From: Chloroflexaceae bacterium
Lineage (GTDB): Bacteria; Chloroflexota; Chloroflexia; Chloroflexales; Chloroflexaceae
DNA length: 64,000 nucleotides
Assembly (NCBI GenBank): GCA_034436755.1
Contig: DAOTVB010000015.1
Location: 56,516 to 120,515 of the forward strand
Direction of reading: 5' to 3'
Part shown: positions 5,672 through 48,150 of the stretch, one piece after another
Layout of the letters: each line of letters starts with the position of its first letter
Position numbering within the stretch: the stretch's first letter is position 1
Notes under the pieces: model-generated
The model's input: the letters and a program-made list of their open reading frames with translations, nothing else
What the model was told of the DNA's origin: nothing
Databases searched by the model: none
Translations under genes and position numbers: made by a program

Positions 5672-5885
5672 GCGTACTCCTTTATTTACACGCGTTACGC
5701 GGTTGCTCACCCAAAAGAAAATGTCGCCTCCGGCAGGGCGGAAGCAAACAGATCTTTTGCACAAAAAAGTTCACAACGTGAATTTTTTTGTGCAAAAGAA
5801 AAAAGCGTCCCATGCTGCCGCAGGCAAATCAGGCTTCCATCGGGTCAAACGTCCGGGTTGCATGTCAACCGCGTAACTCGTGTTA
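5672..5885. repeat. Modular palindromic intergenic repeat element, copy 1, inverted orientation; central hairpin 5759-5793
   Basis: Contains cgcctccggcagggcgg, the T-run/perfect-hairpin/A-run core gcacaaaaaagttcacaacgtgaatttttttgtgc, catgctgccgcaggc and ccgcgtaactcgtgt. Confidence 0.85.
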
Positions 5886-6160
5886 TGTATATTGTACCAG
5901 GTAACAGCAGACCGTTGTATGTTGCAAGGCGCGAAACAAAAAGAAAATCCTGAACAGGATAAGACGCAGGTACCCTCTGCGTGCGGCTCCTGTCACGGCT
6001 TCCACCGCACATATACACGACTACTAAAGTATCTTAGCATAACTATTGTTGATGTTGCAATAGGACTGAAGTTCGATTGGCTGCTACGACGTTTTCCCAG
6101 GTAGCCTGTGTATTTATACGCTGCTACCGACAACTGGTAGCAGCGCGTAGGGTTACAACC

Positions 6161-7723
6161 TTACAGTGGAATATTACCATGCTTCCGCGCGGGCAGGCTC
6201 TGCCGTTTGGTGCGTGCCAGACGCAACGCCCGAATGAGGGTCGGGCGGCTCTCACGCGGCTCGATGACGGCGTCGATATAGCCCCGCTCGGCGGCGGCGT
6301 ACGGGTTGGCAAAGCGGTTCAGGTAATCCTGTGCCAGTTCTTGCTGCCGCTGCGCCGGATCTTCGGCCTCGGCAATTTCTTTGCGGAAGATAATCCGGAC
6401 GGCGGCATCCACGCCCATCACGGCAATCTCGGCGGTAGGCCAGGCAAAGTTGAAGTCAGCGCGGATATGCTTGCTCGCCATCACATCGTATGCGCCGCCA
6501 TAGGCTTTGCGCGTGATCAGCGTGAGTTTGGGCACTGTCGCCTCGCAGTAGGCGTAGAGCAGCTTGGCCCCATGCCGAATAATGCCGCCATACTCCTGCT
6601 GCGTTCCGGGGAGAAAGCCGGGAACATCAACCAGAGTCAGCAGCGGAATATTGAATGCGTCACAGAAGCGCACAAAGCGCGCGCCCTTGATCGAACTATC
6701 AATATCCAGCGTTCCGGCCAGATGCATCGGCTGGTTCGCCACCACGCCGACAACATGCCCATCCAGGCGAGCAAAGCCAATCGTGATATTGCGCGCCCAG
6801 AAGGGCTGAACTTCGAAAAAGAAGCCGTCGTCAACGATGGCCTCAATTGCCGTGGTAATATCATAGGGACGGCGCGGGTTGTCGGGGATAAGCGTTTGCA
6901 ACTCATCTTCCATCCGCTCCGGGTCATCTTCGGGGGGAATGTAGGGCGGGTCATCCATATTATTCAGGGGCAGGAAGGAGAGCAGCGTGCGCATCTGCTC
7001 AAAGCACTCCTGCTCATCCTCAATGGCAAAGTGCGCCACCCCACTGCGGCTGTTGTGGACCATTGCGCCGCCCAGGTCTTCAAAGCCGACTTCCTCTCCC
7101 GTGACCGTCTTGATCACATCCGGCCCGGTGATGTACATCTGGCCCACGCCCTTGACCATCATAATAAAATCGGTCATAATTGGCGAGTAGACTGCGCCAC
7201 CGGCACATGGCCCGGCAATAATCGAGAGTTGCGGGATCACACCGCTGCTCATCACATTGCGATAGAAGATCTCGGCATACCCACCCAGTGACACCACACC
7301 TTCCTGGATCCGCGCACCACCGCTATCATTGATGCCAATGCATGGCACACCCATGCGCAGCGCCAGGTCCATCACTTTACAGATCTTCTCGGCAAACACC
7401 TCGCCCAATGATCCGCCAAACACCGTAAAATCCTGGGCGAAGACACAAACAGAGCGACCATCTATCGTTCCATGGCCGGTGATAACACCATCGCCAAGCG
7501 GTTTCCGGCGTTCCATACCGAAGGCCGTATTCCGATGCACCGCCATAGCATCAAGTTCAATAAACGAGCCGGGATCGATCAGGGCATCGATCCGCTCGCG
7601 CGCGGTCAGTTTGCCGCGCTCATGCTGCTTCTGCGCTGCTTTGGGATCAATCGTCGTCGCCTTCTCACGACGCTGCCGGAGGTCTTCAATCCGTTCGGCG
7701 GTGGTTGCGGTGGTTACTGACAT
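6161..7723 (-). CDS. pccB: Acyl-CoA carboxylase carboxyltransferase subunit (propionyl-CoA carboxylase beta / methylmalonyl-CoA carboxyltransferase family)
   Basis: 520-aa ORF with a strong family signature ([46 protein letters not shown]). AGGAG RBS upstream. Confidence 0.9.
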
Positions 7724-7900
7724 CGCTAACTCCTGTTATATTCCAGGCGATAAACCGCACAGCATGCGCGACACACCAGCGGTAGGTGAGGGGAGTGACC
7801 GGGTACGTCGGCATTTCAGGTAATGAGATATGTTGCGTTAAAGCACCGCGAGGATGCGTCTCAATTGAGTAAGGTCAAGTATAGCATAAAATTTGCAACC

Positions 7901-8635
7901 CTACGTTTTTCGCCCACTCCGCAGCACCCGCCAGGAAAAGAGTGGCACGGCAATCAGAATCCGCCGCCAGCGCCGGGGTTGCCGCAGCAGTCGGTAGAGC
8001 CATTCCAACCCCAACCGCCGCAGCCAGGCCGGCGCCAGTGGTACCCGGCCTGCCAGGTAGTCAAAGACACCGCCCACCCCGATGGCAACCGGAATGCGCA
8101 GTTCGGGCTGGTTGCGGGCAATCCAGAGATCCTGCGCGGGATGGCCGTAGGCTACCAGCAGCACATCGGGATGGGCGGCGGTGATCAGTTGGCGCAGAAA
8201 TGGTTCATGGCGCGGATGGGGCGATCCGGCGTAGCAGCCGGCAATACAAAGACCGGGATATCGCGCGGTCAGAACGGCGGCGGCCTGCTCGGCTACACCG
8301 GGAGCGGCTCCCAACAAGAAGAGGCGATACCCGCGCGTTGCGGCCAGTGCGGCGATCCGCTGCGTCAGTTCGACGCCAGTGACCCGCCCACACAGCGGCA
8401 TACCCAGCCAGCGCGCAGCCAGCAGTAAGCCGAAGCCATCCGGGGTGGCCAGGTCGGCCTGACGCAGCACCGCACGAAAGGCCGCGTTATGCTGCGCTTC
8501 CATCACAAATTCCGGGTTGACGGTGACAATCTGGTGGGGTCCGCCCTGTTCGATGCAGGCGGCAACCCGCGCAACTGCATTCGCTATGGTGATATTATCG
8601 ACCGGCACACCCAGAATCGAAATGCGACTGTTCAT
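7901..8635 (-). CDS. WecB/TagA/CpsF-family glycosyltransferase
   Basis: 244 aa; conserved pattern (ISILGVPVDNIT, FLLGAAPGV, CYAGSPHP). Confidence 0.78.
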   Translation of the reverse strand: MNSRISILGVPVDNITIANAVARVAACIEQGGPHQIVTVNPEFVMEAQHNAAFRAVLRQADLATPDGFGLLLAARWLGMPLCGRVTGVELTQRIAALAATRGYRLFLLGAAPGVAEQAAAVLTARYPGLCIAGCYAGSPHPRHEPFLRQLITAAHPDVLLVAYGHPAQDLWIARNQPELRIPVAIGVGGVFDYLAGRVPLAPAWLRRLGLEWLYRLLRQPRRWRRILIAVPLFSWRVLRSGRKT

Positions 8636-8650
8636 CTGGTTTATTCATAT

Positions 8651-8735
8651 GACAGGACTTACGCGGTGCGCATTCACACGGGACATTTCACCCGATGGCA
8701 GCACGGTACGCACTCCTCCGCCGGGCAACGATCCC
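8651..8735. repeat. Degenerate, hairpin-less copy of the modular repeat element
   Basis: Contains gacaggacttacgcggtg, then gatggcagcacggtacgcactcctccgccgggc. These match modules of full copies (cf. 36440 and 23948). Confidence 0.5.
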
Positions 8736-9198
8736 CACTTGTGCGACAACCATGGCGCTCTCGCAGCAACAATCTTGCCGATAAAGGTAAGTGAGTGGCT
8801 TGCTGCCGCAGGCGCAACGCGTCGTACATTCTGATATTGATTGTCCCGATTATATAGCGAACAGCGCACAAAGCAACCGAGCGCAAACCCGCACGATCGG
8901 TCTCTGTCCGGTACCGGGTTGTGCTCTATCCGGTGAACCTCTGTTCTTGCTATCGTCCAGAATTCGCGCGGGCCATGCACCATGCTATAATGCCCGCATC
9001 CTGAATGAAAGTTGGGGAGTGTGCTGTTTCTTTCAGGTATAAGCAATTTTGCCGGAGCGCATGGGCATGCCATCCGGCGTTCGGGTCTGGCACGAGACAG
9101 GAACAGTCCACACCACGTAAGTCGTGTTATTGAGAATGGCCCTGATGTTCCATTTGTAGCGCAAACCAGAATCTACGGATAAGAGGAGTTACGACACT

Positions 9199-12122: not shown

Positions 12123-12142
12123 CCCGGCTAGAAAGGGCAACT

Positions 12143-22699: not shown

Positions 22700-23863
22700 C
22701 TACAGGCTAATATCCTGCATAGCAGCGGCAGCCACACGCTTCCCGACAGCCGCCGTTACCGCAGCCAGGCGGGGCATCAGCGCGGCGAAGTTTTCCAGCG
22801 TCAGCGACTGCCCGCCGTCGCTACGCGCACGATCCGGATCGGGATGCACCTCGATGGCAAGCCCATCAGCGCCGGCAGCCAGTGCGGCCAGCGCCAGCGG
22901 TTGCACCAGGTACCACTTGCCGGTGCCGTGGCTGGGGTCGGCAATAACCGGCAGATGTGAGCGGCGCTTCGCCAGCGCCACGGCGTTGAGGTCCATGGTG
23001 TTGCGCGTGGCCGTCTCGAAGGTACGAATCCCACGCTCGCACAGAATGACATTCGGATTGCCCTGGGCAACAATATATTCGGCACTCAGTAGCCACTCGT
23101 CGAAGGTCGCCGACATCCCCCGCTTGAGCAGCACGGGTTTCCCGGTGCGCCCAACCTCCTCCAGCAGTTGATAGTTCTGCATATTGCGCGCACCGATCTG
23201 CAGCAGGTCGGCATACTGCGCAACCAGATCAACATCGGTCGGGGTCATCACCTCGGTGACAACCGGCAGGCCCGTCTCTGCGCGCGCCTGGGCCAGCAAC
23301 TGCAACCCCAGCTTGCCCAATCCGCGGAAGGTGTAGGGCGAGGAGCGCGGTTTGAACGCGCCACCGCGCAGCATGGTTGCCCCGGCTTCGCGCACGGCGT
23401 AGGCGGTGGTCATCATCTGCGCTTCGCTCTCGACGGCACATGGCCCGGCGATGACCACACAATCGCCGCCGCCAACTTTGATACCGGATACATCAACAAT
23501 GGTGTCGTGGGGATGCATTTCGCGCCCGGTAAGTTTGTAGGGCCGCGTCACCCGCATCGTCTCCTGCACACCGGGGAAGCGCTCCATGTCTTCCCGCAGG
23601 GCCGGCGGGATGAATGCACCGATGACCCCGACGATCATGCGCTCCTCGCCATGAATAATATGGCCCTTCAAATCATGTTCCTGTAACCGTTCAAGTACGG
23701 TGTCGATGTTCTCCTGCGTGGCGCTGCTGCGCATAATGACGATCATTGCGTTATCTTCCTCTCCTGATGATATAACTTCTGCGACTGGTCGAACGGCATA
23801 TGCCACACGCGGCGCGCCGGGCCGCAGCGTCGGCGTGGCCTGGGGCGGGGCAACGGTTGCCAT
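22700..23863 (-). CDS. 3-deoxy-7-phosphoheptulonate (DAHP) synthase, type I-beta with N-terminal regulatory domain
   Basis: The catalytic core ([24 protein letters not shown]) is preceded by an ACT/FL-like N-terminal domain. The ATG at 23863 has a GGAGG RBS. The track start at 23962 lies inside the repeat element (artifactual MLPQA). Confidence 0.83.
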
Positions 23864-23879
23864 AACAGTAATCTCCTCC

Positions 23880-24345: not shown

Positions 24346-24400
24346 CGGCTTCGCCTGCGGCAGCATAGTTCGGTCTTTACGGCAAAGAAAAACCCCCAGC

Positions 24401-33880: not shown

Positions 33881-33889
33881 CGCGGAGCG

Positions 33890-36278: not shown

Positions 36279-36439
36279 ATGCGCGCCTCACAGAGCCGGT
36301 ACTACTGCTTGTGCCAGGTTTGTGAAAAAAATAGCGGTGACTGACACGACATTATACTGCAAAAGCAGCTAATGAAAAAGCCCACTGCGGAGGTAGCACA
36401 CCGCAATGCGCTTCTGATTGGACGGGGGGAGCAGGCTAA

Positions 36440-36665
36440 TAATGAACAGGACTTACGCGGTCAGTTCCAAATCCGGCATGTGCCTGAATAAACGGCCCGA
36501 CTCGCCTCCGGCAGGGCGGAATAGAACATTCTTTTTCCGGAACATGTGGCACGGTGTGTCACATGTTCCGGAAAAAGACAGAAAAGTACCACGCTGCCGC
36601 AGGCGAAATACACCATTATCGGGAGCAAACGACCCGTTTGAATGCCCACCGCGCGCGTCGTGTAA
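36440..36665. repeat. Modular palindromic repeat element, copy 5, inverted orientation; hairpin 36535-36572 of entirely different sequence
   Basis: Contains aacaggacttacgcggtcagttccaaatccggc, cgcctccggcagggcgg, the core ttccggaacatgtggcacggtgtgtcacatgttccggaa between ttttt and aaaaa, and gtaccacgctgccgcaggcg. Confidence 0.85.
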
Positions 36666-37253
36666 TTAATAATCCGGGGTAATCTGCTGGGCCAGCAGGA
36701 TCGCCTGGGCGACTTCCTTCATCGACTTGCGGCTATTCATTGCGAGTTGTTGAATGCGGCGAAATGCCTCCGCCTCGCGCAGTCCCTGGCTATCCATCAG
36801 GTAGCCCTTGGCGCGTTCGATCACCTTGCGCGTCTCCAGCCGCTCTTGCAGTTGCGACAACTCCTGCTTGCGCGCATGCTGCTCCTGCCAGCGCGCACAG
36901 GCGACCTCAATGATCGGCATCAAGGTGCTCTCGTGGATCGGCTTGACCAGAAAGCCCAGCACACCGGCGTCACGCGCGCGGGATACCAGTTCCCGGTCAC
37001 TGGAGTTCGTAATCAAGATAACCGGAGCCAGCCCTTCATTCTGGAGCAACCGGGCAACCTCAATGCCGTCCATACGCGGCATATCGCGGTCGATTAACAC
37101 CACATCGGGCCGAAGCTGGCGGATCAAGAGAATGGCGCTCATCCCATCGCCGGCCTCACCAATAACCAGGTAGCCCAGATGCTCCAGCGTTTTGCGCAGG
37201 TTGGCGCGAATGGTCGACTCATCTTCCGCTATCAAAACGCGTTTGCCTGTCAT
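36666..37253 (-). CDS. ANTAR-domain response regulator (AmiR/NasR-like RNA-binding antiterminator)
   Basis: A REC domain (VLIAEDE...VLIDRDMPRMDG) is followed by a C-terminal ANTAR (LETRKVIERAKGYLM...EAFRRIQQLAMNS). Confidence 0.8.
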   Translation of the reverse strand: MTGKRVLIAEDESTIRANLRKTLEHLGYLVIGEAGDGMSAILLIRQLRPDVVLIDRDMPRMDGIEVARLLQNEGLAPVILITNSSDRELVSRARDAGVLGFLVKPIHESTLMPIIEVACARWQEQHARKQELSQLQERLETRKVIERAKGYLMDSQGLREAEAFRRIQQLAMNSRKSMKEVAQAILLAQQITPDY

Positions 37254-37600
37254 TGATCGATGCCTCCAAACATCAATAAGCCCCTTGTCGCGCCGGTTCT
37301 ATGGGCGGCAAGGGGCAACCATGCACCAGATTCAGACATCGTAGCTTACAGGCCAGTATACCTGGTTGCTGCGGCGACAACAAGAGCCACAATATACAAA
37401 GTCACACCAGCGGCACTTGTGCAGGAGAATGGAGGAGTGGTGACATACAGATGTTATGCATTGCCCTGTGGACGGAGCTTTGCGCCTCCGGCAAGACGGA
37501 AGATTCCATAATAGAGCAACCCTCCATTGGTCGTATGCCGCCTTCAGGCGGTTGAGAGCGAATCCCGCAGAATTAGTTCACAACCAATGGAGGATTGTTA

Positions 37601-37822
37601 TATACAGGATTTACGCGGTCGGTTCCAAATCAGGCATCTACCTGGACAACCGGCCCGATTCGCCTCCGGCAGGGTGGAAGCCAACAGATCTTTTTCACAG
37701 AAAAATTCACGTTGTAAATTTTTCTGTGAAAAAGATAAAGAAGTACCATGCTGCCGCAGGCGAAGCTGCCGTTCACCGGGTGAAACGTCCGGTTTGATGA
37801 ACCACCGCATAACTCGTGTAGT
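37601..37822. repeat. Modular palindromic repeat element, copy 6, inverted orientation; hairpin 37694-37730
   Basis: Contains acaggatttacgcggtcggttccaaatcaggc, cgcctccggcagggtgg, the core ttcacagaaaaattcacgttgtaaatttttctgtgaa and gtaccatgctgccgcaggcg. Confidence 0.85.
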
Positions 37823-37834
37823 TGTAACCCACAC

Positions 37835-38515
37835 TCAGGGCGCAATCAGCGCCAGGCAGGTGCCGTTGCCCACACTCGCCAGCGCATTGGGCAGGGGGAA
37901 ACAACTGGCAACCGTCGCACTGGTTGCGGGCAGGGCGGCACCGCTAGCCAGACCAAGCACAACCAGGAAAATGACCAGCGCCAGACCAGCGCCCCCGGCA
38001 ACCGTCAATGCTTTGTTTTGATTAAGCTCCGGGTCGGTCAGGAAAAATGCATACGCTGTGTAGATCACGTAGGCAATCAGGCCAATCGCAACGGGCTGAT
38101 AGAGGCAGCCAATCCGGGCAATACTGCCAACCGCGGCATTAAGGCCGAGAATCGGCACCGTATAGAGCGCAGTGGTGTAGATAATCTCATCCTGGGCAAA
38201 TGAACTCCCCTGCTGGCGGCCCAGTGCATTCAGCACAAAGGCAAAGATAAAAAACGCACCAAAGGGTGTCACCAGGGCAAACAGCAACTTCAGGAAGGCA
38301 TAGGGTACCGCCGCAATAAAGGGCGACAGGCCCGCAATCAGGCCAAACACAAAGGCAAACAGCGCTGCCACAACCGACACCGCGCTCACAAAAATCAGCG
38401 CCTCGCGCATCCCGCCTTCTTTCTGAAACCGCCTGAAAGTCTCCGCTTCCGGCTTCCGCAATATCGCCAGGCCCCGGTCAAGCTGGGCGCTGAGCGACGT
38501 GTCCCGAACGATCAT
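37835..38515 (-). CDS. Yip1-domain membrane protein, paralog A
   Basis: 5 TM with the Yip1 topology and a conserved RKPEAETFRRFQKEGGMREAL N-terminal block shared with paralog B. The ATG at 38515 has a GAGGAGG RBS. Confidence 0.6.
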   Translation of the reverse strand: MIVRDTSLSAQLDRGLAILRKPEAETFRRFQKEGGMREALIFVSAVSVVAALFAFVFGLIAGLSPFIAAVPYAFLKLLFALVTPFGAFFIFAFVLNALGRQQGSSFAQDEIIYTTALYTVPILGLNAAVGSIARIGCLYQPVAIGLIAYVIYTAYAFFLTDPELNQNKALTVAGGAGLALVIFLVVLGLASGAALPATSATVASCFPLPNALASVGNGTCLALIAP

Positions 38516-38902
38516 GGCCACTTCCTCCTCTGCTATGCAACACGAGCTTTACCCTTATCCGCTACTGCTACCGTCAGCCGGGGCCCGCACGAGACGAGCC
38601 GCGCAGAGCTAAATGCCCGACCCTACCGGGCACCTCCGTCTTCGGGTTGATCTCCCTGATAAAAAGAGCAACCGGCGGCAGCAGGACAGCACGCTGGGGG
38701 CGCACAGGCCGCGATAAACTGGTTCTGTAACGGTCAATGCGCTCTGGCCTATTGTAACAAAGTTTTCCGCATCCGTTGTCAGACCACAACATACGCAAAG
38801 GGGTCGCGTCAATAACGCGACCCCTTTGAACTGCTCCCAGCACGCCCGGCAGAGCGGACGACCGGGCGTGTCATACCATTTGCAGACCCTGGTCAGATGG
38901 TT

Positions 38903-39472
38903 CTACGCGACGTAAAAAATCGAAAACACCACCCCGGTGACGATCCAGTAGGCAACGAGCGCTGCGACCACCGAAATGACCGCTTTCGTCGTATCGGTCA
39001 GGTTCATGCTGGAGCGCGATGCCAGATAGGCCAGGTAGAGCATATACAGGCTCAGGATGAGTACGACGGTGGGAATAAAGATAATGTTAAAGAGCGGAAT
39101 ATTACTCATAATGCCATTCACGGCCATAATTGGGGCCGCGTAGAGCGCAATGGTGTAAAACACCTCATCCTGCGTTCCGGTACCACCCTGCTGCTTGCCC
39201 ACCCAGTAGAGCACGTAGGAGAATGCAAAAAAGCCGACAATGGGCGTAATAAAGCCACCCAGCAGCCGCAGCAACGCATATCCGAAGCCGCCGAACAGAC
39301 CAAACACAAAGGCAACAATCGCCGCCAGTGCCGCCGCCACCCCGACATAGACCAGCGCCTCGCGCATGCCGCCGCGCTTTTCGTACTGCTCAAACGTCGC
39401 CACGCTGGGCCGGGTCAGAACATTAATGCTCTGATTGAGCATCTCATCAATGGATACACCCTGAACGATCAT
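38903..39472 (-). CDS. Yip1-domain membrane protein, paralog B
   Basis: MIVQGVSIDEM...TRPSVATFEQYEKRGGMREAL is parallel to paralog A. AAGGAGG RBS before the ATG at 39472. Confidence 0.6.
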   Translation of the reverse strand: MIVQGVSIDEMLNQSINVLTRPSVATFEQYEKRGGMREALVYVGVAAALAAIVAFVFGLFGGFGYALLRLLGGFITPIVGFFAFSYVLYWVGKQQGGTGTQDEVFYTIALYAAPIMAVNGIMSNIPLFNIIFIPTVVLILSLYMLYLAYLASRSSMNLTDTTKAVISVVAALVAYWIVTGVVFSIFYVA

Positions 39473-39722
39473 AACCAACTCCTCCTTATACATAAACCGG
39501 CCACGGATAAAGATATGCGTAACTGCCACAGACCGGACGGCGTTATGGTTGCGCCACACGCCGTCATTAATCTGCAGCGCTCCTTTGCATATTGTAGCAA
39601 AAACTGGCACCTTTTGTACAGTTATGCAATTTTCTCGTCTGCTGTGTATGTCCCGACGCGCTTCACTCTATTAGCTGTATTATATGATACGCAATACTGT
39701 GCATAAACGTTGCATACGGCCA

Positions 39723-39765
39723 GGGGTTACGGGTTACGGGTTACGGGTTACGGGTTACGGGTTGG
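39723..39765. repeat. (GGGTTAC)5-6 heptanucleotide microsatellite, telomere-like and G-quadruplex-capable
   Basis: Direct reading: ggggttac gggttac gggttac gggttac gggttac gggttgg. It lies in the divergent intergenic region between the Yip1-B and rph starts. Confidence 0.95.
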
Positions 39766-39799
39766 CGTGTGGGGGACGGCTATGTTATGATGCATTTCA

Positions 39800-39920
39800 T
39801 GCACAGGAGTTACGTGGTGCGGCCTATTCTGGCCTGGTGACAACCCTGAACGCCGGCTGCGCCTGCGGCAGGATGGTACTCTTTTTCTGCCACCCTGCCG
39901 GCGGCGAAAAGCACTCGCTC
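39800..39920. repeat. Degenerate copy of the repeat element lacking the large hairpin
   Basis: Contains cacaggagttacgtggtg ... cgcctgcggcaggatggtactctttttctgccaccctgccggcggcgaaaag. Confidence 0.5.
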
Positions 39921-39971
39921 GGGGAGAACCACGCAACTCGTATCGGTCACGAACACTATGTAGAGGAGCGA

Positions 39972-40706
39972 ATGATGCCACGTCACGATGGGCGACGGCC
40001 GGAGCAGTTGCGCCCGGTGCAAATCACGCCCGAGGCGGCACCCTACGCCGAGGGTTCGGCCCTGATCGAAATGGGTGCCACGCGGGTGCTCTGTACCGCC
40101 AGTGTTGAGCCCACAATTCCCGGCTGGCTGCGCGGGCAGGGGCGCGGCTGGATCACGGGTGAATATGCGCTGCTGCCCCGCTCAACCCTTACCCGCACCC
40201 GCCGCGAGCGCAATGGTGCCGGCGGACGCACGCAGGAGATCCAGCGGCTGATCGGGCGTGCCCTGCGTGCCGCAGTTGACCTGACGGTGCTGGGCGAGCA
40301 GATGATCATCGTTGACTGCGATGTGCTGCAGGCCGATGGCGGGACACGGACTGCCGCGATTACGGGCGGGTATGTGGCCCTGGCTCTGGCCCTGCGGCAC
40401 ATGCATACTGCCGGCCGGTTAGAGATCAACCCGCTGCACCAGGCCATTGCGGCCGTCAGCGTCGGGGTGGTGGGCGGCGAGATTCTGCTGGACCTGGACT
40501 ACAGCGAGGACAGTCAGGCGGATGTCGATTGCAACGTGGTGCAGACCGGCGCGGGCGAACTGGTGGAAGTCCAGAGCACGGCGGAAGGCACACCTATCAA
40601 GCGCGAGCAACTGGATCGGCTGCTGGACCGCGCCGGGCAGGGCATCACCGAACTGCTGGCGCTGCAGCGCGCAGTCCTGGAGCTACCGCAGTCCGCTATC
40701 GAGTAA
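39972..40706 (+). CDS. rph: Ribonuclease PH
   Basis: RPDGR..LRPV ... [14 protein letters not shown] ... [12 protein letters not shown] is the canonical RNase PH pattern. GAGGAG RBS. Confidence 0.9.
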
Positions 40707-40837
40707 CTGCGGCGCACAAACCCAATAGTTTACCGATTTTAACAGTCTATCGGGCCGCATGGCTCACCAAACGGTAGATTGGTATGCTATAATAGTACCC
40801 AATACCCGGTTCGTATGCGTAACTGGAGAGGCCAGCA

Positions 40838-42088
40838 ATGCTGGAAGACTTTAAGCGGGAAGAGGGTCTGCGCCACTTCCATCGAGGATTAACCCTTGAA
40901 CGCGCCAACCGCGTCATGGAGGCCGTTGAAGCCTATCGGCAGGCCGTGGCCCACTATCCACACCTGCGCGAGGCCCACGATGCGCTGGGCTTTTACTATC
41001 AGCGCCATGGGTTACTGGCGAAGGCCGCCGATGAGTTTCGCATTGTCACCAACCTTGATGGGGACTTTCTCTCCTTCTTTAACCTGGGCTATGTCCTGAT
41101 CGAGCTGGAACGGTATGAAGAAGCCCTGGAAACATTTCAGCGCTGCCTCCAGTTTGCCCCGGAAGACTCGGCCACACACTATGAACTGGGGTTGATCCAC
41201 TTCTCGCGGGGCGAGTTTGGCGCCGCGCTGGAACATCTGCAGCGGCCGCTGCGGAGTTATCCGGAAGACTGGGAAGTACACAATCTGATCGGGAAGTGCC
41301 ATCTGGAACTGCGCCAGTATGACGAAGCGCTCAGTGCCTTTGGACGAGCGCTGATACTGGCCCACATCCCCGAGACCCAGGCTATTCTCCTCGAAAACAT
41401 CAACACGGTTGAACGCTATCGCGAGTTTCGTAATCTCAACAGTACCAAAGATCAGGTCTATGCGCAGGATGGCGTGGTCTACCTGGGATCGGCCCAGGAC
41501 GATGGACTCAGCATTACCGCCGCCCAGGACTACCACTTCACCTATCCCGATATCGGGACGACCGTCCAGCGCCTGCTGGCGCTGCATCAGGGATGTCGCT
41601 GGCATTTTACTGCGGTCGTGGCGGTCGATAAGCTGGCCTACCCGCTGGCCGTCAGCCTCAGCCAGTTGTTGAACCTGCCCCTGCGGGCGGTGACTGAACT
41701 CAACCCGGACGATACCGCCCTGCTGGTGATGGCCGTGGCGCGCGAGGCCGAACTGCTGGCGCTGACCATCGAACGCGCCCCTTGCCAGAGCGTGTCGTTC
41801 TGTATGGGGCTCAACTGGTTGCGCCACAACAAGATTCTGCCCGATGTGATCGGGATTGTGGCACAGGAAGCATGCAGCGTGCCCTGGGAGGCCGAACTGC
41901 GCCGCCTCCGCGCCGATGGTGCGCCCGCCGCCCAGATCGACGCCTGTCTGGACTATGCCATCAGCGCAATTGATCAGGCCGTCCGCGAAACTCCGCTTGA
42001 TGCCAACCTGCCGCGTCAGGTGCGCTACTACACCCGTAATCACCGCCGTCTGACCTTCTCGCTACTCCACGAGCAGACGGTTGTGTGA
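40838..42088 (+). CDS. TPR-repeat protein with a C-terminal domain of unknown function
   Basis: 4-5 TPR-like helical pairs fill the N-terminal 200 aa (AVEAYRQAVAHYP..., ALETFQRCLQFAP...). Confidence 0.55.
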   Translation: MLEDFKREEGLRHFHRGLTLERANRVMEAVEAYRQAVAHYPHLREAHDALGFYYQRHGLLAKAADEFRIVTNLDGDFLSFFNLGYVLIELERYEEALETFQRCLQFAPEDSATHYELGLIHFSRGEFGAALEHLQRPLRSYPEDWEVHNLIGKCHLELRQYDEALSAFGRALILAHIPETQAILLENINTVERYREFRNLNSTKDQVYAQDGVVYLGSAQDDGLSITAAQDYHFTYPDIGTTVQRLLALHQGCRWHFTAVVAVDKLAYPLAVSLSQLLNLPLRAVTELNPDDTALLVMAVAREAELLALTIERAPCQSVSFCMGLNWLRHNKILPDVIGIVAQEACSVPWEAELRRLRADGAPAAQIDACLDYAISAIDQAVRETPLDANLPRQVRYYTRNHRRLTFSLLHEQTVV

Positions 42089-42160
42089 GGCGTTGACGCG
42101 TGCCGGATTACACCGCACCGCTCCGGCTTATCACCAAACTTCTCCATAGTCCATAGCTTC

Positions 42161-42345
42161 ATTTTATAACTTTTCACCGTCACCCGCCTTACCTGGTCGG
42201 TTCCAAACGGGGCGTTTCACCCGGTGAACGGCAGCAGCGCCTGCGGCAGCATGGTACACTTTGTATTCTTTTTCAAGAAAATTCACAATGTGAATTTTCT
42301 TGAAAAAGATCGGGGTTTTGCTACCCTGACGGAGGCGAAATCTCC
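42161..42345. repeat. Repeat element copy 8; hairpin 42272-42304
   Basis: cgcctgcggcagcatggtac, then ttcaagaaaattcacaatgtgaattttcttgaa, then ctgacggaggcgaaatctcctgccgggttgatgaccgcg. Confidence 0.85.
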
Positions 42346-42560
42346 TGCCGGGTTGATGACCGCGCAACACCTGTTACAGTTACCCGCCTTACGCAGTGGG
42401 CATTCAAATCAGGCAGTTGCCTCTATGAACGGCACGATTCGCCTGCGGCAGCATGGTACTTGATTTATCTTTCTCACAAAAATGTTGCACTTTATGCAAC
42501 ATTTTTGTGAGAAAGACGGTCCTCTTTCACCCTGCCGGAGGCACTGTCCACTGACAAACA
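42346..42560. repeat. Repeat element copy 9; hairpin 42472-42512
   Basis: cgcctgcggcagcatggtac, then tctcacaaaaatgttgcactttatgcaacatttttgtgaga, then caccctgccggaggcac. Confidence 0.85.
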
Positions 42561-42860
42561 CAAGATCGCGTAACGCACATCAGCACGGGTCGTTTCGCGT
42601 TTTTCGCTCATTTCGCGGCGTTCGTGGTCCAAACTTTCACCGCGCAACGCCTGTTACAGTTACCCGCCTTACGCGGTGGTTCATCAAACGGGGCGTTTCA
42701 CCCGGTGAACGGCAGAAGCACCTGCTGCCGCAGGTACTTGATCTATACTTTTGCAGCAATGTTGCGCCTTACGCAACATTGCTGCAAAAGGTTGGAAATC
42801 CGCTTGCGTCGTGTTGCAGCTTACACGATTTCGTGTTATTCTATTGTTACGTTACCGTGT
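42561..42860. repeat. Repeat element copy 10 plus an accessory module; hairpin 42749-42789
   Basis: The accessory module gtttcgcgtttttcgctcatttcgcggcgttcgtggtccaaa is also present at 48085-48135. Core: ttttgcagcaatgttgcgccttacgcaacattgctgcaaaa. Confidence 0.8.
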
Positions 42861-42873
42861 AAGGCAGCATGCT

Positions 42874-43827
42874 ATGATCCGTCTGGGCTTCGCGGTGCGG
42901 GTGGTCGGGCAGCCGGCGCTACGCGCTTATGAGCGGCGACGACACCCGGCCCCCGATCTGAGTATCAATCTGATCTATCTGCGCGATGTGCTGGTCTACC
43001 TGCAGCGCGTGGGCATCCGGTTCTACCGCATTGCGTCCACGCTGCTGCCGGATGCACCAGGCATAAACGCATTTGAACAACTGACCGCATGTGCAGTTGA
43101 GCTGGATGCGCTGGCTGCCCAGGTCACGGCACAGGATGTCCGGCTCACGCTCCATCTGGATCACCATATCGCCCTGGGCAGTGCCGATGATACCCAGGCG
43201 GCGCGCAGTCTGGCAACCATCGAAGCCCAGGCCGCCCTGCTGGAGCGGCTCGATGCCGGGCAGTCGCCGGGCATGCCGCCTGCGGGTGTACTGGTGACGC
43301 ATGTGGGCGGCCCGACGCATACCCCCGCCACGCTGCAACGCTTTGCCCGGCGCTACCAGGCGCTGTCGCCCCGGGCCCGCGCGCGCCTGGTGGTCGAGCA
43401 TGACACGGGCGGCTTTAGTCTGGGACGCCTGCTCAGGCTGCATCAGCAGTGCGGTATCCCGGTCGTTTTTGACTACCTCCACTGGCAGATCCACAACCCG
43501 GAGCGACTGCCACCGGGGCTGGCGCTAGGGCTGGCGCTGGCAACCTGGCCGCCCGGAGTACGCCCGGAAGTGCATCTCAGCACCGCACGGAGCGAGGCGC
43601 ATCTGCTGCCGGCGGCGGCGGGGCAGAGTGGGCGCGTGTTGCCCCCCCGTCCCGGCCAGCACGCCGATTTTATCGCTGCCGCCGATCTACTGCACCTGCT
43701 CGACGCGGCGCGCGGGTTGCCGCCCTTCGACCTGATGCTGGAAGCCAAGGCCGGCGATCTGGCGCTGCTGCGGCTGCGTAGCGATATTGCCCGCATAAAT
43801 CCGGCGCTGGCCGCACGGCTGGCATAA
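42874..43827 (+). CDS. uvsE: UV-damage endonuclease (UvsE/UVDE family)
   Basis: MIRLGFAVRVVG is a canonical UvdE start and the TIM-barrel pattern follows throughout. The internal ATG is preferred over the track start at 42751, which lies in the repeat. Confidence 0.78.
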   Translation: MIRLGFAVRVVGQPALRAYERRRHPAPDLSINLIYLRDVLVYLQRVGIRFYRIASTLLPDAPGINAFEQLTACAVELDALAAQVTAQDVRLTLHLDHHIALGSADDTQAARSLATIEAQAALLERLDAGQSPGMPPAGVLVTHVGGPTHTPATLQRFARRYQALSPRARARLVVEHDTGGFSLGRLLRLHQQCGIPVVFDYLHWQIHNPERLPPGLALGLALATWPPGVRPEVHLSTARSEAHLLPAAAGQSGRVLPPRPGQHADFIAAADLLHLLDAARGLPPFDLMLEAKAGDLALLRLRSDIARINPALAARLA

Positions 43828-44278
43828 CACCATCGTTCTGTATCGTTTTGTTTTGTTTTTTCTACATATAAATCATCAGCATTACGACAAGTCATAGTAG
43901 ATAAGCAGGTACTTTTCTCCTATTGACGTTAACGACCAGGGGTAGTACGCTGTCAGATGTATGCAAACTGAGATCAACTACCGTGTAGCATCAGCAGGCA
44001 TCATTCTACCTTCACTTCTCCCCTGCCTGTAGGCCTTTCTGCCAATACCCGTATCGATCAGTCGGATCGATCAGATCGATCAGGCCGACCAGTCCGACGA
44101 AGACCAGTATCAACCAGCATTGCTTTGATCAGTAGCCGGGCGGAACGCCCACCGCGTAACTCCTGGCCGGTTCGGTTGACCACACCCATCAGGCCCCTTG
44201 TGCTAACGTGCAGCGCGGGGGTGGATCGGTTTTTGCATGAAACAACAACGCATGCCGATTTAGACGAAGGAGGTTCGT

Positions 44279-45427
44279 ATGCGTACTATCGCCGTTGCAT
44301 CACTCGTACTCCTGTTTGGTTCCCTGGCAATCATGTATATCGCGCAGCCAACCGCCCTGCTGCTGGCAATTGGCGTTATTATTCTGGCCGTTGGTGCGGG
44401 GCTGGCGTTCCTGGGCAAACAGCGCGAGGTTTTGCTGCTGGGGAGCCTCTCCCTGCTGCTCTCAATTGCGGCAGCCGGGCTGATTGGTCAGGCCAGTTGG
44501 GGCGCAACCGGGGCACTGATTGTACCGCTAATCTGGGTGTTGCTGCTCTATGCTGCTCTGACGTGGGCCTGGAACAATACCATCGATATCCCCAGCGGGA
44601 CGGTTATGGTCATCCGGCACCCTAACGGTATCCGACTGCGCGAAGGACCGGCGCGCATTATTCCGCCGCTACCCTCTTTTGAGCGGCATATCGCCACCAT
44701 GCCTACCTACGAGTTGTCGAGTAATTTTACCGTTGAGCATCTCAACACGCGGTCGTTGCAAAATATCAACGGGATTGCGCTGGATGTAGGCTATCAGATA
44801 CGCCTGCCGCTCAAGCTGCTGGCTAACCTGCCGAACCGGGCCCGGCTGATTGAGGAGATGGCAAGTGAAACGGAGCAGAGTCCGGAGCGCGCCATGCTGC
44901 GCACGGCTTTCTGGGAGCGCCTGCTGGATCGGCAGATCCGCGAGGTTATCGACGGCCTGCTACGGTCGGCGGTCTATGAACATATCAACCGGGCCGTCGA
45001 TGGCAGTAACGAGCGCAATAAACTGGCCGACGAGGTAGAGACCCGCCTGCGCGAGTCGGTGCAGCACTGGGGCATCACCATTCACTTCCTGGAAATCCCC
45101 TCCGTGACGCTTGATCCGGAACAGATCAAGCGTAGCAAGCGCGAGTATGCCATCAAGCGCGAGATCGAAGATGCCGAACGTGCCGCGCGGATCGAAGCCC
45201 AGAAGATCGAGATGATGGGCAAAGCGCAGGCCCAGGTGCAGGCCCACGCGATTGCCAGTTGGATCAAAGCCATCCAGGATCAGGGCGTCAACCTTGCGCC
45301 CGAAGATATCGAGCAGATCGTACTGAACGCGCTGGAGGAGATGAACGAGAAGTACCGGCGGGTCGAGTTGTTTACCGGAATGAAGAAGCCCCAGCACGCG
45401 CAACAGGAGCGCGCGATTGGTAAGTGA
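44279..45427 (+). CDS. Membrane-anchored SPFH/band-7-like domain protein
   Basis: 4 N-terminal TMs are followed by an SPFH-like region and an Ala/Glu/Lys/Arg-rich coiled coil. GGAGG RBS. Confidence 0.55.
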   Translation: MRTIAVASLVLLFGSLAIMYIAQPTALLLAIGVIILAVGAGLAFLGKQREVLLLGSLSLLLSIAAAGLIGQASWGATGALIVPLIWVLLLYAALTWAWNNTIDIPSGTVMVIRHPNGIRLREGPARIIPPLPSFERHIATMPTYELSSNFTVEHLNTRSLQNINGIALDVGYQIRLPLKLLANLPNRARLIEEMASETEQSPERAMLRTAFWERLLDRQIREVIDGLLRSAVYEHINRAVDGSNERNKLADEVETRLRESVQHWGITIHFLEIPSVTLDPEQIKRSKREYAIKREIEDAERAARIEAQKIEMMGKAQAQVQAHAIASWIKAIQDQGVNLAPEDIEQIVLNALEEMNEKYRRVELFTGMKKPQHAQQERAIGK

Positions 45428-45469
45428 GGTTAGGGGCAATACTTTTCAAATAGCAGAACCTGTGCGGTA

Positions 45470-45640
45470 GCATGACAAACCGGGTGGTTGCTCCGATACA
45501 GAACGGTTCCGCCTGCCGCAGCATGGTACGTTTTTATCTTGTTTCACAAAAAATTTTTCACAAAGTGAAAAATTTTTTGTGAAACAAGGATGATTTCTTC
45601 CACCCTGCCGGAGGCGGTATCCTCTTCCAGGTAAGGAATC
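45470..45640. repeat. Repeat element copy 11, inverted; hairpin 45541-45585
   Basis: ccgcctgccgcagcatggtac, then gtttcacaaaaaatttttcacaaagtgaaaaattttttgtgaaac, then ccaccctgccggaggcgg. Confidence 0.85.
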
Positions 45641-45976
45641 ACATAAGCCCGGTTATTTGAAAGATATTGAGGTTAGGGGACAGGGGACAGGTCATAGGGG
45701 ATAGCTCTCAGGTGTCGGCTTTTTGTGGTAGGGACGCACAGAAACGCGTCCGCCGCCCGTCCTGGTGCGGAACATGGTTTCGGGAGCGGCAGTCTCTGTT
45801 GGTCTCGCCAACCGCATTCCAAGCAAAACACATCTGGCGCATCGTTATCGACCAGACAATTTGTTCTTTGTCCTTTGTTTGTTTGTTCTTTCGCTAAATC
45901 GCTCTTCCATGTGGGCCGCTTCATGCTATAATACCCTGCTGGAGATGAAGGTTGTGTAGATGAAAGAGGGATTAGC

Positions 45977-46720
45977 GTGAGTCAGGCCAAAGAAGCGCAG
46001 GACATGAAACCATCGCTCTCACCTGGCGGTATCGCCTCAATGCTGGTTGTGCTGGCTGTTTTTATCGCCCTCGCCTGGCTATTGATCAACCGGGCGGAAG
46101 CGTTACAACCGGGTGACACAGCCGCCGAAGAACCGGCCCACGGAGAAGTTACTGAGGCAGAAGAGGTTATTCCCGCCGAGGGAGAAGCAGAGGAGCAAAC
46201 TATCGTGCGAACCTATGATGCACCGCCCCCAATGACCATTAATCCGGAGCATGAGTATACCGCGACGATTACGACACCACGCGGCGATATTCGGATCAAG
46301 CTGTTCCCGGAGGTTGCCCCGCAGACCGTCAATAACTTTGTCTTCCTGGCCCGGAACGACTTCTACGACGGTTTGACCTGGCACCGGGTTATTGCAGACT
46401 TTATGGCTCAGGGTGGCGATCCGGCCGGCACCGGCGCGGGTGGCCCCGGTTATAGCATTCCCGCCGAGTTTTCGGATGAACTGCGGTTTGACCAACCCGG
46501 CAAGGTGGCGATGGCTCGCTCAGCCAATCCCGACAGTGCCGGATCACAGTTCTTTATTACCACCGCACAGGCACCCTGGCTGAACGGGCAGTACACCATC
46601 TTTGGCGAGGTGCTTGAGGGCCAGGAGATTGTGAACAGCATTCCGTTGCGCGACCCGGCTATGGCAACGGAGCCCGGCGAAGAGATTGTTGAAATCACCA
46701 TTACCGAGAGCGAGGGATAA
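45977..46720 (+). CDS. Cyclophilin-type peptidyl-prolyl cis-trans isomerase, N-terminally membrane-anchored
   Basis: FHRVIxxFMxQGGD-like (WHRVIADFMAQGGD) and FFIT motifs. There is an N-terminal TM helix and an acidic linker. GTG start with a TATAAT promoter 40 nt upstream. Confidence 0.85.
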   Translation: MSQAKEAQDMKPSLSPGGIASMLVVLAVFIALAWLLINRAEALQPGDTAAEEPAHGEVTEAEEVIPAEGEAEEQTIVRTYDAPPPMTINPEHEYTATITTPRGDIRIKLFPEVAPQTVNNFVFLARNDFYDGLTWHRVIADFMAQGGDPAGTGAGGPGYSIPAEFSDELRFDQPGKVAMARSANPDSAGSQFFITTAQAPWLNGQYTIFGEVLEGQEIVNSIPLRDPAMATEPGEEIVEITITESEG

Positions 46721-46754
46721 GCGCGCTTCGCTGTCGGTTCCACGGCTTCAGCGT

Positions 46755-46788
46755 CAGGGGGGCAACCAGTTGTAGGTTGCCTCCCTGA
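46755..46788 (+). terminator. Candidate intrinsic terminator after the PPIase gene
   Basis: gtcagggggcaacc...ggttgcctccctgac is a 14-bp stem with 1 mismatch. T-rich tail. Confidence 0.4.
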
Positions 46789-46892
46789 CTGTTGGTGGGT
46801 TGTTGTGATGTCATAACCGCAGGCGGGCCGAGGTGTGGTACACTCTTATCCAGACCCATATCGTGCCAAGATTAGCGAAAGGAGCTAACCGT

Positions 46893-47651
46893 ATGCCCGA
46901 GCATAAGCCGATCGCGCAGCAGCCGGATGCATGGTGTACCCTGGCGCAGCAGACGACCGAAGCCATGCAGGTCTGGTATGATTTCTTCCAGATGACTAAC
47001 ATCACCGGGTTGCATATGGTTGGGATGGGGGTTTATACCACCACTGCGCTGTTGAAAACAAATACGCACCTGCTGCAGACGCTCCTGGAGAATGCCTTCA
47101 GTATAAGTCGGGTTCATGGCTATGACTGGCAGACAACGCTCTTGCCAGAGAACGGCATGTATGCCCGGCAAGCGCCCCCAGTGGACAACCGGCCCATAAC
47201 CAATGGCAATGGCAATGGCAATGGTTCGCCGGCAGAACCAACCATTGATGCTTCCCCGGAAGTGCCGGTAGCAGTTACCACACCTGTCACCAACGGCGCG
47301 GTGGATAGTGTAGTAGAAGTTGAGGTCAGCCCCCCGCAACCGCCCCGCCGGGAAGATATCGGCGCGGTAGGCCCAGAGGCCGGCTTTTATTTCACCGGAC
47401 CTGACGATCAAGCGCACCACGCGGTCCACAATCTGACCGATTTTGTCCAGCAGAGTGCAGCGGTTGACGACACGACCTGGATCTACCATCTGCACCGGGG
47501 CGACTATAGCAACTGGTTTCGCTATGTCGTTGCGGATGCCGAACTGGCCGACGCCGCCGCGCAGATTGAGCAGGAGGCGGATGTCACCCCGGCAGACAGC
47601 CGCGACCAGGTGCAGGCGCTGATCACGGAGCGCTACGCGGTGCAGGTGTGA
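46893..47651 (+). CDS. Hypothetical protein with internal (NG)4 repeat
   Basis: AAAGGAG RBS before ATG 46893. (GGCAAT)3 encodes NGNGNG. No recognisable family. Confidence 0.45.
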   Translation: MPEHKPIAQQPDAWCTLAQQTTEAMQVWYDFFQMTNITGLHMVGMGVYTTTALLKTNTHLLQTLLENAFSISRVHGYDWQTTLLPENGMYARQAPPVDNRPITNGNGNGNGSPAEPTIDASPEVPVAVTTPVTNGAVDSVVEVEVSPPQPPRREDIGAVGPEAGFYFTGPDDQAHHAVHNLTDFVQQSAAVDDTTWIYHLHRGDYSNWFRYVVADAELADAAAQIEQEADVTPADSRDQVQALITERYAVQV

Positions 47652-47659
47652 GTTCTATC

Positions 47660-47880
47660 GCCATTTGTCATTTGACAGGAGTTACGCGGTTGAGATCCAA
47701 ACCGGACGTTTGAACCGATGGAAGTCTGTTTCGCCTGCGGCAGCATGGTACATTTTGATCTTTTTTCACAAAAAATTTGCACAAAGTGCAAATTTTTTGT
47801 GAAAAAAGATGGTTTCTTCCGCCCTGCCGGAGGCGGAATCTCCTGTCGGGTCAACGACCGCGTAAGTCGTGTCAAATGAC
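47660..47880. repeat. Repeat element copy 12; hairpin 47765-47803; the 3' module contains a perfect 17-bp palindrome
   Basis: cgcctgcggcagcatggtac, then ttcacaaaaaatttgcacaaagtgcaaattttttgtgaa, then cttccgccctgccggaggcggaatctcctgtcgggtcaacgaccgcgtaagtcgtgtcaaatgacacgacttacgcgg. Confidence 0.9.
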
Positions 47881-48150
47881 ACGACTTACGCGGTCGGCAT
47901 GCAAACCGGGCGTTTGATCCGATGAACACCCGCTTCGCCTGCGGCAGCATGGTACTTGATCTTTCTTTTTCACGAAATGTTAGCTCGAAGAGCCAACATT
48001 TCGTGAAAAAGAAATGATATCTTCCGCCCTGCCGGAGGCGATAACCCCCGCCAAACGCGGGATCGTCTTATACCTATCAGCACTGGCCGTTTCGCGTTCT
48101 TCGCTCATTTCGCGTTGTTCGTGGTCCAAATCCCCACCGCGTAACTCGTG
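47881..48150. repeat. Repeat element copy 13 plus an accessory module; hairpin 47969-48007
   Basis: cgcctgcggcagcatggtac, then ttcacgaaatgttagctcgaagagccaacatttcgtgaa, then cttccgccctgccggaggcg, then gtttcgcgttcttcgctcatttcgcgttgttcgtggtccaaa. Confidence 0.85.

Follow-up and report, generated by a model that had tools for sequence, protein, structure and literature searches.

A mobile repeat family of Kouleothrix-type Chloroflexota with a central palindrome that differs in nearly every copy and stays paired

The 64-kb stretch of Chloroflexaceae DNA analysed here (GCA_034436755.1, contig DAOTVB010000015.1, positions 56,516 to 120,515; referred to below as the window) carries, between its genes, a repeat unit of about 200 nt with a long hairpin at its middle. 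An initial annotation of this DNA had quoted nine such hairpins and claimed at least 11 copies; all nine were found at the positions given, and 11 hairpin-bearing copies are present, one of which (42660-42799) is truncated. We found that this unit constitutes a non-autonomous element, some 200 bp in length, which resembles miniature inverted-repeat transposable elements (MITEs), that it forms a previously undescribed family found so far in Kouleothrix-type Chloroflexota only, and that the two arms of its central palindrome change in concert. On balance, and with only modest assurance, we consider that the main cause of the perfect palindrome is self-templating, in which one arm is re-copied from the other in the course of DNA replication.

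Read in its own orientation, the element begins with a 16-nt terminal inverted repeat (TIR), ACA[C/G]GA[C/G]TTACGCGGT, followed by a variable arm bearing a small CAAAC-n5-GTTTG hairpin, the near-invariant L box GCCTGCGGCAGCATGGTAC and a short T-rich spacer. The AT-rich central palindrome, with 19-26 bp in each arm, typically consists of TCTTTTTCAC, about 13 variable nucleotides, a 3-nt loop and the exact complement of this arm; TCTTTTTCAC and GTGAAAAAGA make up the outer stem. Beyond a further spacer lie the near-invariant R box CCCTGCCGGAGGCG, a second variable arm in a short or a long version, and the inverted TIR, ACCGCGTAA[CG]TC[CG]TGT, which complements the left end (16 pairs, with 86% of the cells complementary in 61 copies). 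The element is non-coding and has no coding capacity. Copies are either solitary or arranged head-to-tail with a period of about 204 nt, neighbours in a tandem sharing a 5-bp spacer; such arrays lie at 23.9 kb, 42.2 kb and 47.7 kb of the window. A search with nhmmer, using a hidden Markov model built from eight window copies, gave 15 copies or fragments in the window. The window copies and associated features, with the central hairpin where it was found, are the following.

5685-5886, minus strand: full copy, nhmmer score 197; hairpin arms 5753-5774 / 5778-5799, 22 bp with one mismatch, loop of 3 nt
8650-8859, minus strand: degenerate copy, central hairpin not recognisable
9112-9127: orphan TIR beside the degenerate copy 8650-8859
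23887-24088, plus strand: full copy, array unit 1; hairpin 23974-23996 / 24000-24022, 23 bp, perfect
24088-24292, plus strand: full copy, array unit 2; hairpin 24176-24198 / 24202-24224, 23 bp, perfect
24292-24379, plus strand: truncated array unit 3, of which no more than left TIR, small hairpin and L box remain
36443-36666, minus strand: full copy with a variant arm (element d); hairpin 36530-36552 / 36556-36578, 23 bp with one mismatch
37601-37822, minus strand: full copy; hairpin 37688-37710 / 37714-37736, 23 bp with one loop-adjacent mismatch
39803-39943, plus strand: hairpin-less copy, L box joined straight to R box
42180-42376, plus strand: full copy at the head of a tandem of three; hairpin 42267-42287 / 42289-42309, 21 bp, perfect, loop of 1 nt
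42379-42660, plus strand: copy with a long right arm; hairpin 42468-42489 / 42495-42516, 22 bp, perfect, loop of 5 nt
42660-42799, plus strand: truncated copy with a degenerate L box and neither R box nor right TIR, still with a perfect 19-bp hairpin, 42748-42766 / 42772-42790
45450-45655, plus strand: solitary copy, belonging to a sub-family whose termini diverge; hairpin 45538-45561 / 45565-45588, 24 bp, perfect
47673-47875, plus strand: full copy, first of two in tandem; hairpin 47758-47782 / 47786-47810, 25 bp, perfect
47876-48153, plus strand: copy with a long right arm; hairpin 47962-47986 / 47990-48014, 25 bp with one mismatch
47855-47896, no strand assigned: TIR-TIR junction palindrome formed by a right TIR and the left TIR of the next copy, 20 bp, perfect

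The gene neighbours of these copies are ordinary housekeeping genes, as were all ten window open reading frames (ORFs) tested. The hairpin-less copy at 39803-39943 lies between the divergent genes for Yip1 (minus strand) and RNase PH (plus strand). The array of 2.5 copies at 23887-24379 is situated between the genes for chorismate mutase (24401-24883, minus strand) and DAHP synthase (22700-23962, minus strand), two same-strand genes of the aromatic pathway, perhaps transcribed together. The perfect junction at 47855-47896 is untypical across 60 such junctions.

We searched a species-representative genome collection with the L-box 19-mer, and at least 91 stretches matched. Among the matches listed, all 91 stretches came from five Chloroflexota assemblies, namely Kouleothrix sp. 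STL-CHL26, Chloroflexaceae F17_50, an uncultured Chloroflexaceae bin, Roseiflexaceae SMAG_U9509 and Chloroflexi SZAS-1, while a search of viral contigs revealed none carrying the L box. These stretches, and further ones from relatives compared below, are referred to as loci, with labels of the form L###, and the statistics on 127 copies given below are pooled over six assemblies (window and loci). With nhmmer, the window and the 91 loci gave 223 non-redundant matches, of which 135 carry the two boxes and 127 a stem of 15 bp or more. Over the region compared, the window does not differ from contig JBKHCP010000255.1 of GCA_046541795.1, and it is 92-95% identical to F17_50 where the two overlap. 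Exact-protein look-ups with five window proteins (Band_7, UvdE, a 226-aa protein, a 157-aa HATPase protein and RNase PH) returned the same strain only, and a metagenome scan with Band_7 returned a single distant locus, L092, in which rearrangement of the arrays has gone too far for individual copies to be matched as orthologues. No description of the element was found in a literature search on repeats in Kouleothrix.

Stems of the 11 hairpin-bearing window copies measure 19-25 bp, rather than the 13-20 bp of the initial annotation, and, in agreement with its description of them as perfect or nearly so, seven are perfect and four have one mismatch. Over the 127 copies the mean stem length is 22.4 bp (range 16-26); 101 stems are free of mismatches and 21 have a single one, so that only 35 of 2844 pairs (1.2%) are mismatched and 98.8% are Watson-Crick. 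At the same time, left arms are distinct in 125 of the 127 copies. Within the inner 13 bp, the two arms of one copy show on average 0.23 mismatches, against 6.06 for arms taken from different copies. Perfect stems also occur in 71-75% of the copies lacking TIRs or boxes, the overall proportion being 80%. The copies are old: among 108 of them, arms are at least 97% identical in one pair and 90-94% identical in five pairs.

Covariation statistics over pooled copies gave a strong central signal. RNAalifold, applied to a MAFFT alignment of 61 full copies, recovered the central helix; double-sided change was found in 18 of the 19 central pairs and 98.2% of the cells were paired, a count reached by none of 500 shuffles, whereas slid controls were paired in 33-50%. 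The claim that substitutions in one arm are mirrored in the other stands. Mean pairwise identity is 0.65 for the inner stem and 0.73-0.80 for the outer stem TCTTTTTCAC/GTGAAAAAGA, compared with 0.88 for the L and R boxes and about 0.79 for the TIRs; in the loop, the spacers and those parts of the arms that lie outside the boxes it is 0.52-0.59. It follows that the core, which had been called hypervariable, is so relative to the conserved boxes but not relative to the non-box arms, and that the conservation ascribed to the flanking arms holds for the two boxes of about 19 nt and for the termini, but not for the remainder of the arms. Covariation is restricted to the central helix: at two polymorphic TIR positions the combinations were CG in 20 copies, GC in 17 and others in 22, which is chance-level pairing. 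Folded as single-stranded DNA, the unit 47673-47875 is predicted to form a rod (-64.5 kcal/mol, z -10.7); yet only the central helix covaries, and we therefore rejected selection on a structure of the whole element, whether RNA or single-stranded DNA.

The mismatches themselves are mostly transitions, and G:T/T:G mismatches (14) are about as frequent as A:C/C:A mismatches (13). Comparison of orthologues and near-identical copies made it possible to follow single changes. Orthologues of element d are present in L038 and L093-L102. Element d differs from L038 by two paired substitutions; from six contigs of a closer strain (the L093 group, in which the adjacent response-regulator gene is 95% identical to that of the window) it differs by a paired 1-nt deletion, T5>T4 on one arm and A5>A4 on the other, together with one unpaired change that falls on the window lineage. 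L008 and L039 differ by three paired substitutions and by one pair altered on both sides. In L025 and L058, where the arms are about 95% identical, the inner 12-13 bp have been rewritten on both arms, and a two-base change also extends the stem. The five close comparisons give in total about 14 paired events against 2-4 unpaired ones.

Loops change in a similarly symmetric manner. The 3-nt loops occur as reverse-complement pairs (AAA 16 and TTT 9, AAC 11 and GTT 8, GGA 10 and TCC 3, ACA 5 and TGT 8, GAA 7 and TTC 3), and the loop pairing statistic S was 335 against 136±19 and 75±57 under two nulls, with 0 of 5000 null replicates reaching it. Where two copies have their inner stem in common, the loops match in 25 pairs and are reverse complements of each other in 31. 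The closest paralogues, L017:6614 and L011:4495 (arms 98.6% identical), differ by one paired substitution and a GAA>TTC loop. L110 and L112 stem from separate samples within a single project; their identity over 1686 bp is 99.8%, and the sole difference between them is the loop, GCA in one and TGC in the other. The simplest events amount to one paired substitution accompanied by a flipped loop, to a 1-nt indel mirrored on both arms, or to nothing more than a flipped loop.

The element is also mobile, as concluded from its TIRs, a target-site duplication (TSD) and a clean pair of empty and filled sites. With the element ends set at ACA...TGT, exact flanking direct repeats of 5 or 6 bp were found at 47% of 64 copies as opposed to 1.7% of cross-pairs. 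An exact repeat of 5 bp stands on both sides of 30% of the solitary copies and of 41% of those in arrays, and in about 10% more the repeat is 6 bp long, the cross-pair controls being 0.5-2.3%; at lengths of 3, 4 or 7 bp these flanking repeats gave no signal. The target consensus is N-A-W-T-N. A 4-bp TSD with an element one base longer had been considered and was replaced by the 5-bp model, flush with ACA...TGT. The empty and filled site was located by a look-up of ribosomal protein L28. The spacer between the L28 and aminotransferase genes (29529-29737) is empty in the window and in L108, L109 and L111, where it reads ...CCT TATTTC AGG..., and in L110, L112 and L113 it holds a 222-nt copy with TATTTC on both sides. 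Presence/absence polymorphism with target duplication in relatives, a check put forward in the initial annotation, is seen at this site.

At corresponding intergenic sites, relatives may have or lack the element, and its orientation and the number of its copies vary as well: one additional hairpin-less copy is found in L038, L039 has one copy more than L008, and L092 has arrays where the window holds a remnant and vice versa. Tandem arrays grow and shrink, and the palindrome is lost from them through deletion. Copies without a hairpin look as if they had arisen in this way, and in an example from L092 the loop and the right arm are missing between TTGCG repeats. Orphan TIRs are located only beside elements. 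As to the enzyme, the TIRs and the fixed length of the duplication point to a putative transposase of the DDE type. Duplications of 5 bp are typical of several insertion sequence (IS) families, which is a lead only. Clustering of the ORFs in about 600 kb of element-bearing loci revealed no recurrent transposase ORF, and yielded ABC ATPases and secreted repeat proteins only. The initial annotation had envisaged that the repeat might turn out to be a described MITE with a known transposase; with its TIRs and TSD it is indeed MITE-like, but neither a description in the literature search nor a partner among the ORFs of the loci and the window ORFs tested was found.

How might a palindrome remain perfect while its sequence changes? 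The absence of a G:T excess over A:C, the paired changes and indels, and the reverse-complement loops point to templating that acts at the DNA level and in a strand-symmetric manner. From the relation 2μ/f, with 1.2% of pairs mismatched, a mismatch would be resolved about 170 times faster than a site mutates, and independent compensatory mutation would therefore be insufficient. In the mechanism that we propose, a change in a single arm would be either erased or copied onto the other arm through short-range template switching at the hairpin, so that the two arms would evolve in concert, their sequence drifting while the pairing persists. The process might be a quasi-palindrome correction or an intra-palindrome conversion during DNA replication, and a copied tract crossing the loop would leave the loop inverted. 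As to the enzymology, a template switch in replication is what we infer, in preference to a repair event within an extruded cruciform. Mönttinen and Löytynoja regarded a compensatory change combined with a loop inversion as the strongest signature of template-switch mutation (PMC8794818), and Lavi et al. proposed that template switching keeps bacterial inverted repeats perfect (PMC5941160). Of the readings offered in the initial annotation, templating is the one favoured here, in the specific form of copying from arm to arm, given the paired substitutions and indels between orthologues and the loop inversions.

Several observations weigh against self-templating as the sole cause. TIR-TIR junctions, which are palindromes as well (60 junctions, 16-nt arms, 5-7-nt spacer), have 2.85 mismatches per 16, compared with 2.62 for the TIRs of one element and 3.27 for random pairs, and only 5% of them are perfect. 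As these junction palindromes are uncorrected, selection for a perfect central hairpin may contribute; either template switching works efficiently on long, near-perfect, AT-rich palindromes with 3-nt loops only, or selection and exchange between copies also play a part. Mismatches per copy climb slightly, from 0.20 to 0.46, as other landmarks are lost, and the truncated copy of L098/L100 has a decayed hairpin with several mismatches. Several positions of the stem admit a limited set of alternative bases, a hint that the sequence is under some constraint. The rewriting between L025 and L058 is too large for one simple event within the hairpin, and its donor sequence may come from another copy. 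No partner transposase was found in about 600 kb of loci or among the ten window ORFs tested. Moreover, every sequence used is a metagenome assembly, and the claims made here are to be read as claims about assembled sequence.

Among the other explanations, selection alone would hold that the central hairpin or cruciform has to be perfect in order to serve transposition (perhaps by acting as the hinge on which the ends of the 200-bp element meet) or a host function, that mismatched copies are lost and that compensation comes from independent mutations. The contrast between the perfect central palindrome and the imperfect junction palindromes, the fairly conserved outer stem, the slight excess of mismatches in degraded copies and the quick turnover of arrays are all in keeping with it. 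We nevertheless think it unlikely, as paired changes, 1-nt indels among them, occur near the neutral rate (about 14 against 2-4), which is beyond the reach of independent compensation; loop inversions would be left unexplained; the copies are old and their arms diverse, hence they are not the fresh output of a perfect master; and truncated copies incapable of transposition, such as that at 42660-42799, retain perfect stems. Gene conversion or template switching between copies would instead overwrite the centre from other copies in either orientation, arms and loop together, and the near-invariant L and R boxes could anchor such exchange. Stem alleles common to several species, a weak correlation between stem identity and box identity (r 0.2-0.3) and the rewritten inner stem of L025/L058, in which variants common among other members of the family have been substituted, speak for it. 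However, full stems are unique in 125 of the 127 copies, the simplest events demand a donor identical to the recipient but for one change, and L025/L058 keeps its locus-specific outer stem CCCGAA, which leaves almost no homology to guide the exchange; this explanation thus seems rather improbable to us as the main one. It is also conceivable, if doubtful, that the palindrome is an obligatory working part, a cruciform or hairpin needed by a putative transposase or by a structure-specific host enzyme, for instance in folding the 200-bp element to bring its ends into synapsis. If so, re-templating and the loop flip would be steps of the enzyme's cycle, and the core would be rewritten at each use.

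A further possibility is that the hairpin works as RNA, be it a bidirectional terminator, a site for RNase III or messenger RNA stability, or part of a small RNA. It could draw on the strong covariation of the central helix, on the position of most window copies downstream of at least one gene and on the stem of about 22 bp, which is the length of an RNase III substrate. On the other hand, Rfam gave no match at gathering score in the whole window, and a scan by E-value gave sub-threshold matches only, mainly to microRNA-precursor models. The initial annotation had seen a bidirectional terminator in the T-run/hairpin/A-run layout. This reading fails, because the two runs pair together as the outer stem on both strands, no U-tract follows the hairpin on either strand, and placement is unbiased. 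The stems are AT-rich, not GC-rich as in an intrinsic terminator; the terminator consensus was found in one of nine hairpins in 36000-49000, and the regional count of 18 lies within that of shuffles (12.6±3.7). A gene caller based on GC content at third codon positions (GC3) placed 36 of 68 arrays between tandem, 17 between divergent and 15 between convergent genes, a split that random intergenic insertion would also give, and put 23 hairpin-bearing copies in divergent regions; this caller is crude (it mis-called the gene to the left of element d, which is actually an NTP_transferase at 35085-36278, minus strand), and its arrangement counts are approximate. Together with the Pfam context in the window, they agree with the earlier statement that copies are intergenic in every gene arrangement. 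Copies are oriented with the flanking gene in 27 cases and against it in 24, and the array at 23887-24379 splits the same-strand chorismate mutase and DAHP synthase genes. Since G.U is as scarce as A.C and both loop orientations occur, a strand-specific RNA has little to commend it, and we consider an RNA function very unlikely; covariation here is no evidence of a functional RNA or terminator. Equally far-fetched seems the idea that every round of transposition remakes the palindrome by way of an intermediate, either a hairpin or a folded-back single strand, as in hairpin telomeres, its perfection being a by-product of mobility. Perfect stems with Watson-Crick pairs only, both loop orientations (reminiscent of the flip/flop of hairpin-primed replication) and the rod-like imperfect palindrome of the whole unit would fit it; but the arms beyond the stem are consistently asymmetric (L box versus R box, left-arm hairpin) and do not covary, so that the element as a whole is no product of fold-back copying, paired changes and a loop flip occur at fixed orthologous sites without re-insertion, and the TIRs with the 5-bp duplication would suggest an ordinary cut-or-copy reaction of the DDE type.

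Among known systems, bacterial MITEs were compared as a class (Correia/NEMIS of Neisseria, ERIC/IRU of enterobacteria and Nezha of cyanobacteria). The present element shares with them the length of about 200 bp, non-coding nature, intergenic location, multiple copies, TIRs, short TSD and presence/absence polymorphism, as well as an imperfect-palindrome architecture able to form a long hairpin. In Correia/NEMIS, ERIC/IRU and Nezha, the conserved or compensated structure is the TIR hairpin itself, whereas here the TIRs do not covary and the perfect AT-rich central palindrome is different in nearly every copy. Its sequence is unrelated to theirs, no described family or partner IS was found for it, and the head-to-tail arrays sharing a 5-bp spacer also set it apart. 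With the RAYT-mobilised REP, BIME and REPIN sequences it shares intergenic, clustered palindromes in both orientations and a maintained hairpin. REPs are GC-rich imperfect palindromes of 20-40 nt without TIRs or target duplication; the element, by contrast, has 16-bp TIRs, a 5-bp duplication and an AT-rich centre, and the ORFs of the loci yielded no recurrent protein family whatever, hence no candidate RAYT. Intrinsic terminators resemble it in being intergenic stem-loops flanked by T and A runs, but differ from its AT-rich 22-bp stem, which has no U-tract and is not enriched at the 3' ends of genes. Integron attC sites offer a resemblance only, in that structure is retained over sequence and each copy is different; the element shows no cassette organisation, no nearby integrase and no conserved extrahelical bases, and its stems are fully Watson-Crick. 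An IS200/IS605-derived PATE, with subterminal hairpins, no TIR and no duplication, was considered too and is excluded by the TIRs and the 5-bp duplication. Quasi-palindrome template switching has been described at E. coli hotspots, in ribosomal RNA and microRNA hairpins (PMC8794818) and for perfect inverted repeats of Proteobacteria (PMC5941160; PMC7202029). In common with it, the arms here are made or kept complementary, changes of several bases or indels are mirrored, loops are inverted, and the pairing is strand-symmetric and Watson-Crick only. The differences are that we see a steady state of more than 100 paralogous palindromes, not single hotspots or rare events in RNA genes, that loop inversions are common here and not 'extremely rare', and that the neighbouring GC-rich quasi-palindromes at TIR junctions are uncorrected.

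Some further repeats and rearrangements were noticed in the same material. In L040 (1031-1077) the small left-arm hairpin is enlarged to a perfect 21-bp palindrome, CTGCACAGTAGCGTTGCAAAC cgggc GTTTGCAACGCTACTGTGCAG, and the same left-arm site at 45472-45520 of the window is an imperfect palindrome only; the former looks as though a quasi-palindrome had been made perfect in one step, in line with template switching. The window copy at 45450 and L040:1010-1420 were considered as orthologues, which was rejected, as BLAST of the flanks shows them to be members of the same sub-family only. The right arm of the central hairpin in L040 contains a different insertion of about 150 bp (1147-1297) with inverted ends GTTAGCGCGAATAAG... 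/ ...CTTATTCGGGCTAAC and a flanking repeat of about 10 bp, AAATTTTT(T)GT, which looks like a second MITE nested in the first. An unrelated array of about eight units of 40-58 nt occupies 1505-1891 of the window (consensus CAGCAGCCGTAGCCGTAGGGTGCATTGTATGCACCGTTCTGCTGTATTC), each unit containing the palindrome GGTGCAT-tgt-ATGCACC, and its GGTGCATAGAATGCACC motif adjoins the truncated element in L098/L100. Straight after the last element array, at 48164-48206, lies a GC-rich, near-perfect 19-bp hairpin, CATAGCGACGCCCCGGCGC / GCGCCGGGGCGTCGCTGTG, which is distinct from the element; it is downstream of the ORF at 48240-50732 (minus strand) and looks like that ORF's own terminator-type hairpin. The same ORF contains a repeat of 2 x 120 nt (48368-48607), and the 1276-aa ORF at 51461-55291 (minus strand) contains 3 x about 117 nt and many repeats of 31-66 nt (52676-55252). 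Just downstream of the 45450 copy, 45705-45822 is about 85% identical to L017 12-129 and 5437-5553, which suggests a further dispersed repeat. The short-read contig JBKHCP010000255.1 ends at window position 45462, inside the copy at 45450-45655, and several other contigs end in or beside element copies; the family thus fragments assemblies. Finally, the identical ANTAR response regulator found in L093/L094 (9246-10000) and in the window (37254-37834) has different upstream neighbours, EAL/PAS genes in L093, L094, L096 and L097 versus the 226-aa protein, Yip1 and RNase PH in the window, which indicates a rearrangement breakpoint beside an element.

The novelty lies in the MITE-like family. The proposed mechanism was known before, and is seen here with unusual clarity and on an unusual scale. 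For RNA discovery the family is a warning, as any covariation test would call its signal of 18 in 19 pairs a structured RNA, while this covariation bears the marks of a DNA-level process, namely strand symmetry, scarce G.U and flipping loops. It also represents a natural reporter array for replication template switching, with probably hundreds of palindromes per genome: such switching, for which a role in forming and maintaining hairpins has been proposed, is usually seen as rare single events, whereas here paired indels and loop inversions can be counted, even between samples of one population. Kouleothrix comprises filamentous Chloroflexota that matter in activated sludge, and it gains with this element a mobile family that is dense, evidently active, breaks short-read assemblies and reshapes intergenic regions.

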